Sequence record: MN022785.1
Strand: one strand, 5' to 3'
Origin: Escherichia phage VEc20
DNA: 64,000 bases
Shown: positions 38,995 through 39,453 of the stretch, in pieces
Numbering within the stretch: the first letter of the stretch is position 1
Layout: every line of letters begins with the position of its first letter
Notes under the pieces: model-generated
Database searches by the model: none
What the model was told of the DNA's origin: nothing
Seen by the model: only the letters and a program-made list of their open reading frames with translations
Program-made: the position numbers and the translations under genes

Positions 38995-39453
38995 TTATTT
39001 TAAATCATCTGCCCAATCGAGTTTAAGAGGCTCTTTGTATTCACGGTCAAGTACAACCGGAATTTGTACATCACCGCTAAATGATAAGGGCCCAACATTA
39101 TAAGACAATGTTATATGCGGTGTGTAATCATCAAAATCGTGTGTAGCACCTAGTGCCCGCGCATACATGTGTCGACAGCGCAGATATTCAGAATCTAGCA
39201 CAAGTACAAGAGTCGATCCATCTTGTGTTTTCCACACTTCTAAATGTCCAGAAGAAGCTACTTCAAAACTTCCACTCGATGGAACATATGGAACATTTAC
39301 TCTTGAATAACATATAGTCGAATGAATTTTTTCTCTAGGAACTGGATTAGGAACACGTAAAGAGCGCTGGAGTTCTTCCAGCGCGTCAAGTGTTAATTCT
39401 GAAAACTTAGCTGCTACATAAAGACCCGTTGAAAAGTCTTTAAATTCCATCAT
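38995..39453 (-). CDS. 57B: gp57B, 2H-phosphoesterase (T4 Acb1, anti-CBASS cyclic-oligonucleotide phosphodiesterase)
   Basis: 152 aa as in T4 57B; two H-x-T/S-x motifs (HSTI, HITL); conserved position upstream of 57A. Confidence 0.75.

Follow-up and report, generated by a model that had tools for sequence, protein, structure and literature searches.

Acb1, Acb2 and TadIV-1 homologues in an Escherichia phage of the T4 type: a predicted set of antagonists of bacterial nucleotide alarm signals

The closest described systems are those of phage T4, in which the product of gene 57B was purified via activity-guided fractionation as a 3'3'-cGAMP-degrading activity. This protein, Acb1, cleaves cGAMP, cUA and cAAA, blocks the effectors Cap5, CapV and Cap4, and loses its function when H44 and H113 are replaced (H44A/H113A). 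In the Acb1-cGAMP structure the scissile phosphate sits over the HxT/HxT tetrad, and the roles of the catalytic, base-stacking and adenine-reading residues used below come from the same study (PMC9117128). A second T4 protein, Acb2 (Vs.4), binds 3'3'-cGAMP with a Kd of ~84 nM and does not bind cA3 (PMC10312549); its binding is abolished by Y8A and F82C (PMC12657218). In the prototype of this family, PaMx33 Acb2, the dinucleotide contacts are Y11 and K26, and a further pocket for cyclic trinucleotides is present in some Acb2 members only and does not define the family (PMC10312549). Finally, T4 Vs.3 is TadIV-1, an N7-cADPR sponge and the only protein of that phage that inhibits type IV Thoeris. 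Residues R17, R18 and K24 matter in the T4 protein, the only active homologues are "long" forms of ~90 aa, the short forms of ~70 aa being inactive, and the proteins of T4 and UPEC07 are the only ones for which N7-cADPR sequestration has been published (PMC13243611).

Here we compare with these systems a 64,000-nt stretch of DNA from Escherichia phage VEc20 (record MN022785.1), which we call the window. The window comes from a Tequatrovirus: its DNA is ~97.4% identical to that of DalCa (vB_EcoM_DalCa) and HP3 over a 24-kb stretch, and the 2.5 kb around 57B are 98.8-99.1% identical to many Tequatrovirus genomes (e.g. vB_EcoM_ASO78A, vB_EcoM_DalCa and SHFML-26). Genes follow the T4-type order in two runs, one composed of tk, vs, vs.1, regB, vs.3-vs.8, denV and e, the other of the tRNA cluster, internal-protein genes, 57B, 57A, 1, 3, 2 and 4, followed by baseplate genes on the opposite strand. 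Synteny with T4 and DalCa extends over vs.1-regB-vs.3-vs.4-vs.5-vs.6 and over ip-57B-57A-1-3-2; the vs.3-vs.5 block, whose DNA is shared at 100% identity by four sequenced phages, is found in ~530 phage records. Because the matches of 57B and of the small ORFs of the vs region are full-length, of high identity and set in this syntenic T4-type order, they are not due to chance. We consider it very probable that this is a T4-type phage carrying the known T4 set, Acb1, Acb2 and TadIV-1, which would neutralise bacterial nucleotide alarm signals (Table 1). The identification draws on identity or near-identity to characterised proteins, in which all functional residues known from the literature are kept, and on genes that have intact frames and overlap at their starts and stops.

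Table 1. Features of the two anti-signalling loci in the window
Feature	Position	Strand	Evidence and context
Sigma-70-type promoter-like site, TTTACT-17-TATAAT with TG	28443..28471	minus	Consensus match only; between vs.3 stop and regB
vs.3 = tadIV-1, predicted N7-cADPR sponge against type IV Thoeris, 92-aa "long" form	28475..28753	minus	T4 identity, PDB 9WIW
vs.4 = acb2, predicted cyclic-dinucleotide sponge, 88 aa	28753..29019	minus	PDB 7UQ2, Pfam PF24729, T4 identity
vs.5, 73 aa	29012..29233	minus	8-nt overlap with the start of acb2, 1-nt overlap with the stop of vs.6
vs.6, GrcA-like glycyl-radical protein, upstream gene of the packed vs.6-vs.5-vs.4-vs.3 run	29233..29595	minus	Pfam PF01228 Gly_radical E=2.8e-18; TAATG with vs.5
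57B = acb1, predicted anti-CBASS 2H phosphoesterase, 152 aa	38995..39453	minus	T4 identity, Pfam PF23474, PDB 7T26, residues
57A, tail-fibre assembly chaperone, directly upstream of acb1 and coupled to it	39450..39680	minus	Pfam PF17594 GP57 E=7.6e-50; ATGA overlap

An earlier note on this DNA had suspected a second anti-CBASS gene, an Acb2 homologue, among small ORFs of 73-106 aa at 28475..29233. Three minus-strand ORFs of 106, 100 and 73 aa are indeed found there, 106 and 100 aa being the maximal lengths obtained from upstream GTG/TTG codons; homology and junctions together define the true genes as 92, 88 and 73 aa long. The suspicion proved right, as the middle ORF is vs.4/acb2. Its start is the ATG of MIEDIKGY rather than the upstream TTG that gives the 100-aa ORF, and its product matches T4 "Vs.4" in PDB 7UQ2 over residues 1-88 (E=2.9e-52) and the Pfam family PF24729, Acb2_Tad1_hairpin (E=2e-20, 73.2 bits against a cut-off of 27). 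Matches to PaMx33 Acb2 are weak (8H2J, E=0.066) and align over the whole length. The window protein has the 88-aa length of T4 Acb2 and its position between vs.5 and vs.3; at 93% identity, it differs from it by six substitutions (E13D, L44W, N46D, C50F, F52L and T64A), the last five of which lie in the centre of the protein. The cyclic-dinucleotide contacts Y8, K23 and F82 are all kept, Y8 aligning with PaMx33 Y11 and K23 with PaMx33 K26. We drew 46 related loci from IMG/VR (Acb2 identity 42-94%) and aligned 44 of these; Y8 and K23 were invariant across the 44, and F82 was kept in the window, in T4 and in nearly all of them. As the T4 protein, 93% identical to it, was crystallised as a hexamer, we infer that the window protein would likewise form a hexamer holding three cyclic dinucleotides.

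Could this Acb2 be a variant with a ligand range unlike that of T4, having gained cyclic-trinucleotide binding or a changed affinity for the Panoptes decoy 2'3'-c-di-AMP? The question arises because the hairpin centre is where the substitutions cluster, T64A among them falling in the helix of the trinucleotide pocket. Across the 44 aligned T-even loci, conservation is strong over residues 1-33 and 66-88, and positions 37-65, where five of the six changes from T4 are found (positions 44-64), are hypervariable with indels; between the window and T4, the pN of vs.4 reaches 0.032 as compared with 0.005 or less for vs.1, regB, vs.3, vs.6 and 57B. Moreover, T64 is one of the T4 residues (with Y37, A57, L60 and D61) that clash with cA3, which is part of the reason why T4 Acb2 does not bind it (PMC10312549), and at this position the window protein has A64, agreeing with A70 of the cA3-binding PaMx33 protein where T4 has threonine. 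Against this, the dinucleotide contacts are untouched, pN/pS is ~0.2 with no gene-wide signal of positive selection, and the trinucleotide pocket, defined by R67 and T74 in PaMx33, is not kept: the window protein, like that of T4, has D61 where PaMx33 has R67, with T68 present. PaMx33 R67 is essential for cA3 binding, and D61R alone did not restore binding to the T4 protein, in which the helix geometry differs (PMC10312549). A ligand range unlike that of T4 is thus unlikely. Given that Y8, K23 and F82 are kept, and D61 too despite A64, we expect the window Acb2 to bind dinucleotides as T4 Acb2 does and not to bind trinucleotides, even though its range could differ slightly from that of T4, T64A lying on the helix that lines the PaMx33 trinucleotide pocket.

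The neighbour of acb2, vs.3, encodes a published immune-signal sponge, a point absent from the earlier note. Its product is 99% identical to T4 TadIV-1 and shares with it the position directly downstream of acb2, the sole change being V21A, inside the flexible N-terminal loop implicated in ligand binding. With 92 aa, the N-terminal flexible region and R17, R18 and K24 all present, it has the features of the "long" class. It also matches PDB 9WIW (E=2.6e-37), the apo structure of TadIV-1 from phage UPEC07 (PMC13243611), which has a 9-residue insertion that the window protein lacks. By the published work on the T4 protein, the window protein would sequester N7-cADPR. Among the related loci considered for vs.5 below, only a minority have a full-length TadIV-1. 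Here, acb2 and tadIV-1, two proven immune-signal sponges, stand side by side, the ATG of vs.3 overlapping the acb2 stop as TAATG.

At the second locus, 57B, the earlier note had recognised a 152-aa product with two H-x-T/S-x motifs of 2H phosphoesterases and had equated it with the T4 protein that degrades CBASS signals, and each of these points holds. The ORF starts with ATG, and its product is identical to T4 57B/Acb1 (NP_049750.1) at 152 of 152 positions, the two genes differing by 8 nucleotides, all synonymous (98.3% nucleotide identity). It matches Pfam PF23474, "Acb1", over profile positions 1-144 of 144 (E=2.7e-60, 202.7 bits against a cut-off of 27), as well as Acb1 of Erwinia phage FBB1 (PDB 7T26, also 7T27; E=4e-62). 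The catalytic histidine motifs are present on alignment as H44-S-T46 and H113-I-T115, so that the HxT/HxT tetrad (H44, T46, H113 and T115) is complete; the base-stacking residues Y12, W74, F107 and W147, the adenine-reading E141 and the C-terminal lid (145-152) are all in place. Like its T4 counterpart, the gene lies downstream of 57A and gene 1, its start ATG overlapping the 57A stop as ATGA; its downstream neighbour differs, being another internal-protein gene in place of T4 ipI. Since the protein is identical to that studied in T4, we infer that the 57B of this phage would cleave CBASS cyclic oligonucleotides.

The 57B of T4 and its DalCa homologue are labelled "RNA ligase" in RefSeq, as is PHROG 755, and the 2H phosphoesterase fold class is common to LigT enzymes; that 57B is an RNA ligase or a generic LigT-type 2',5' RNA ligase/cyclic phosphodiesterase acting on RNA instead of serving immune evasion is nonetheless highly improbable, given the end-to-end match to the dedicated Acb1 family and, for the identical T4 protein, the cleavage of cyclic oligonucleotides, the block of effectors and the loss of function in H44A/H113A (PMC9117128). 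The label is superseded because biochemistry exists on the identical T4 protein, and it is most likely a carry-over from the shared fold class.

It is also conceivable that the three genes are present in this phage and contribute nothing, for instance as unexpressed or redundant remnants. In favour of this, the promoter-like sites are no commoner than in shuffled sequence in our consensus scans. For the vs.6-vs.3 run, such a site follows only after vs.3, before regB, where it delimits the run on its 3' side; DalCa has an annotated promoter at the equivalent place. The frames, however, are all intact and under purifying selection, and the genes are tightly packed: successive stop/start overlaps along vs.6-vs.5-vs.4-vs.3 read TAATG, ATGATTGA and TAATG, and these junctions, together with the ATGA of 57A-57B, are preserved, the same arrangement occurring in hundreds of phages. 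Knockout phenotypes are known for the same genes in T4 (PMC13243611, PMC9117128, PMC12657218). We therefore give very little credit to the notion of silent or superfluous genes and favour a functional T4-type set.

How would such a set operate? Going by the published work on the T4 proteins, Acb1 would be a metal-independent 2H phosphoesterase that binds adenosine-containing cyclic di- and trinucleotides of CBASS, its HxT/HxT tetrad cutting the 3'-5' bond 3' of adenosine so that the signal would be linearised and inactive. Acb2, a small helical protein, would act as a hexamer that sequesters 3'3'-cGAMP and related cyclic dinucleotides, each ligand being held between the N-terminal regions of paired protomers through stacking on Y8 and F82 and a salt bridge with K23; this sequestration would raise the signal threshold for the CBASS effector. 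TadIV-1, encoded directly downstream of Acb2, would be a dimeric sponge, whose flexible basic N-terminus may capture N7-cADPR, the signal of type IV Thoeris.

The remaining small gene of the run, vs.5, belongs to no Pfam family and has no PDB relative in our Pfam scan and PDB search. Structure prediction gives a confident fold, composed of a beta strand, a long helix and a beta hairpin, for which we found no known structural relative in the PDB. Other genera of T4-like phages share the 73-aa frame at 55% identity. When 1.84 billion representative proteins were searched with a profile of Vs.5, nothing came up beyond a few small proteins of its own family, all from T4-like phages, and weak matches to very long proteins, spread over multiple stretches, which were judged spurious. 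Among 34 diverged Tevenvirinae loci that have vs.5, its stop overlaps or abuts (within a few bases) the acb2 start in 28, and vs.6 sits between the two genes in the other 6. Vs.5 is not an inhibitor of type IV Thoeris, because Vs.3 to Vs.8 were each tried against this system and only Vs.3 worked (PMC13243611). Might Vs.5 also counteract a host defence, or work together with Acb2? This is suggested because the family is limited to T4-like phages, the predicted fold has no known relative, the coupling to acb2 recurs in 28 of 34 loci and the gene is located in the run of the two sponges; we hold it to be rather doubtful.

In the T4 reference, vs.5 (T4 locus L001, 8382..8558) carries a 1-nt deletion relative to the window and yields a 58-aa product. 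We considered that vs.5 might be a pseudogene in T4 and ruled this out: the deletion is confined to X04567, AF158101 and NC_000866, the extra base is present in resequenced T4 genomes, and MT984581 annotates a 73-aa Vs.5. Judged by this comparison of records, the 58-aa T4 Vs.5 is an artefact of an old (1980s) sequencing error that was kept in derived records. Vs.5 was probably overlooked because this one-base error in the T4 reference truncates it to a spurious 58 aa.

Does the window hold other genes of this kind? For this search, 64 other small or unassigned minus-strand ORFs were joined by GS linkers into ten pseudo-proteins and scanned against Pfam; a search of PDB sequences took in ~43 of the ORFs. 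Neither search brought up another family of the Acb1, Acb2, Tad or Apyc type among these ORFs, families with a Pfam model being those that the scan covers; Acb4, Acb5, Lockin and Sequestin may have none, so the scan does not prove their absence. Acb5 is reported mainly from phages of Streptomyces and Mycobacterium, with fewer cases in Bacillus phages and Haloarcula viruses. For Sequestin, the T4 anti-Thoeris sponge encoded by Y16O, a primer sequence has been published (bioRxiv 10.1101/2025.07.12.664507); even with as many as 3 mismatches allowed, it matched nowhere in the window, a weak test that a diverged homologue would escape. The matches that did appear among the other ORFs were PinA (a Lon inhibitor), a macro domain (Tk.4), NUDIX (NudE), a DUF4031 protein and various DUFs; a "Serglycin" Pfam match among the pseudo-proteins was rejected as a linker artefact. 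The macro-domain protein (26597..27064, minus strand) is a Tk.4 homologue related to ADP-ribose-1''-phosphate phosphatases, and the NUDIX hydrolase (31621..32076, minus strand) is a NudE homologue; by analogy, both act on ADP-ribose-type compounds and could in principle touch signals of the TIR/Thoeris type. In the mobD/tk region we also observed four small helical DUF7438 paralogues of 57-79 aa (23451..24050 and 25833..26018, both on the minus strand).

The surroundings of 57B show some features of their own. The tRNA cluster (36304..37321, minus strand) comprises 11 genes (Arg, His, Asn, Tyr, Met (CAT), Thr, Ser, Pro, Gly, Leu and Gln) as compared with 8 in T4, and no ORF of segB size was seen inside it. 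Downstream of 57B, two internal-head-protein genes (38351..38584 and 38664..38921, both on the minus strand; PHROGs 8111 and 3499) take the place of T4 ipI. Their products resemble T4 IPI only in the N-terminal MKTFKEF...E targeting peptide; because this peptide is all that they have in common with it, the T4 anti-GmrSD protein IPI* is not encoded here. A 153-aa ORF (35100..35561, minus strand) starts with MKTYAQFLMTE, a targeting peptide of the internal-protein type, and has no similarity to T4 IPIII. In the other run, at 30614..31584 (minus strand), e directly follows denV, so that ipII and ipIII are absent from their T4 position. Finally, a motif of ~41 nt is present in three copies (38310-38350, 38611-38651 and 38942-38982), each just upstream, on the minus strand, of a small gene. 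It combines a -35-like TTTACA with a stem-loop (GATGAGGTA...TACCTCATC) in which a -10-like TACTAT is enclosed, and it seems to resemble the "PeSL" promoter-early stem-loop cassettes of variable regions in T4-type genomes.

Thus, the anti-CBASS finding is correct, and it is complete once TadIV-1 is added; this is already known biology, and current understanding is unchanged by it. In practice, it calls for correct annotation, as characterised counter-defence genes are still called "RNA ligase" or "hypothetical protein" in public records; in fact, Vs.3, Vs.4 and Vs.5 bear the latter label in every phage record that we inspected. The lone lead worth a bench test is Vs.5, whose gene is so tightly coupled to acb2. 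For the phage itself, the gene set predicts resistance to type IV Thoeris and to many of the CBASS systems whose signal is cGAMP, cUA or cAAA. Panoptes systems, for their part, detect Acb2 and should sense this phage.
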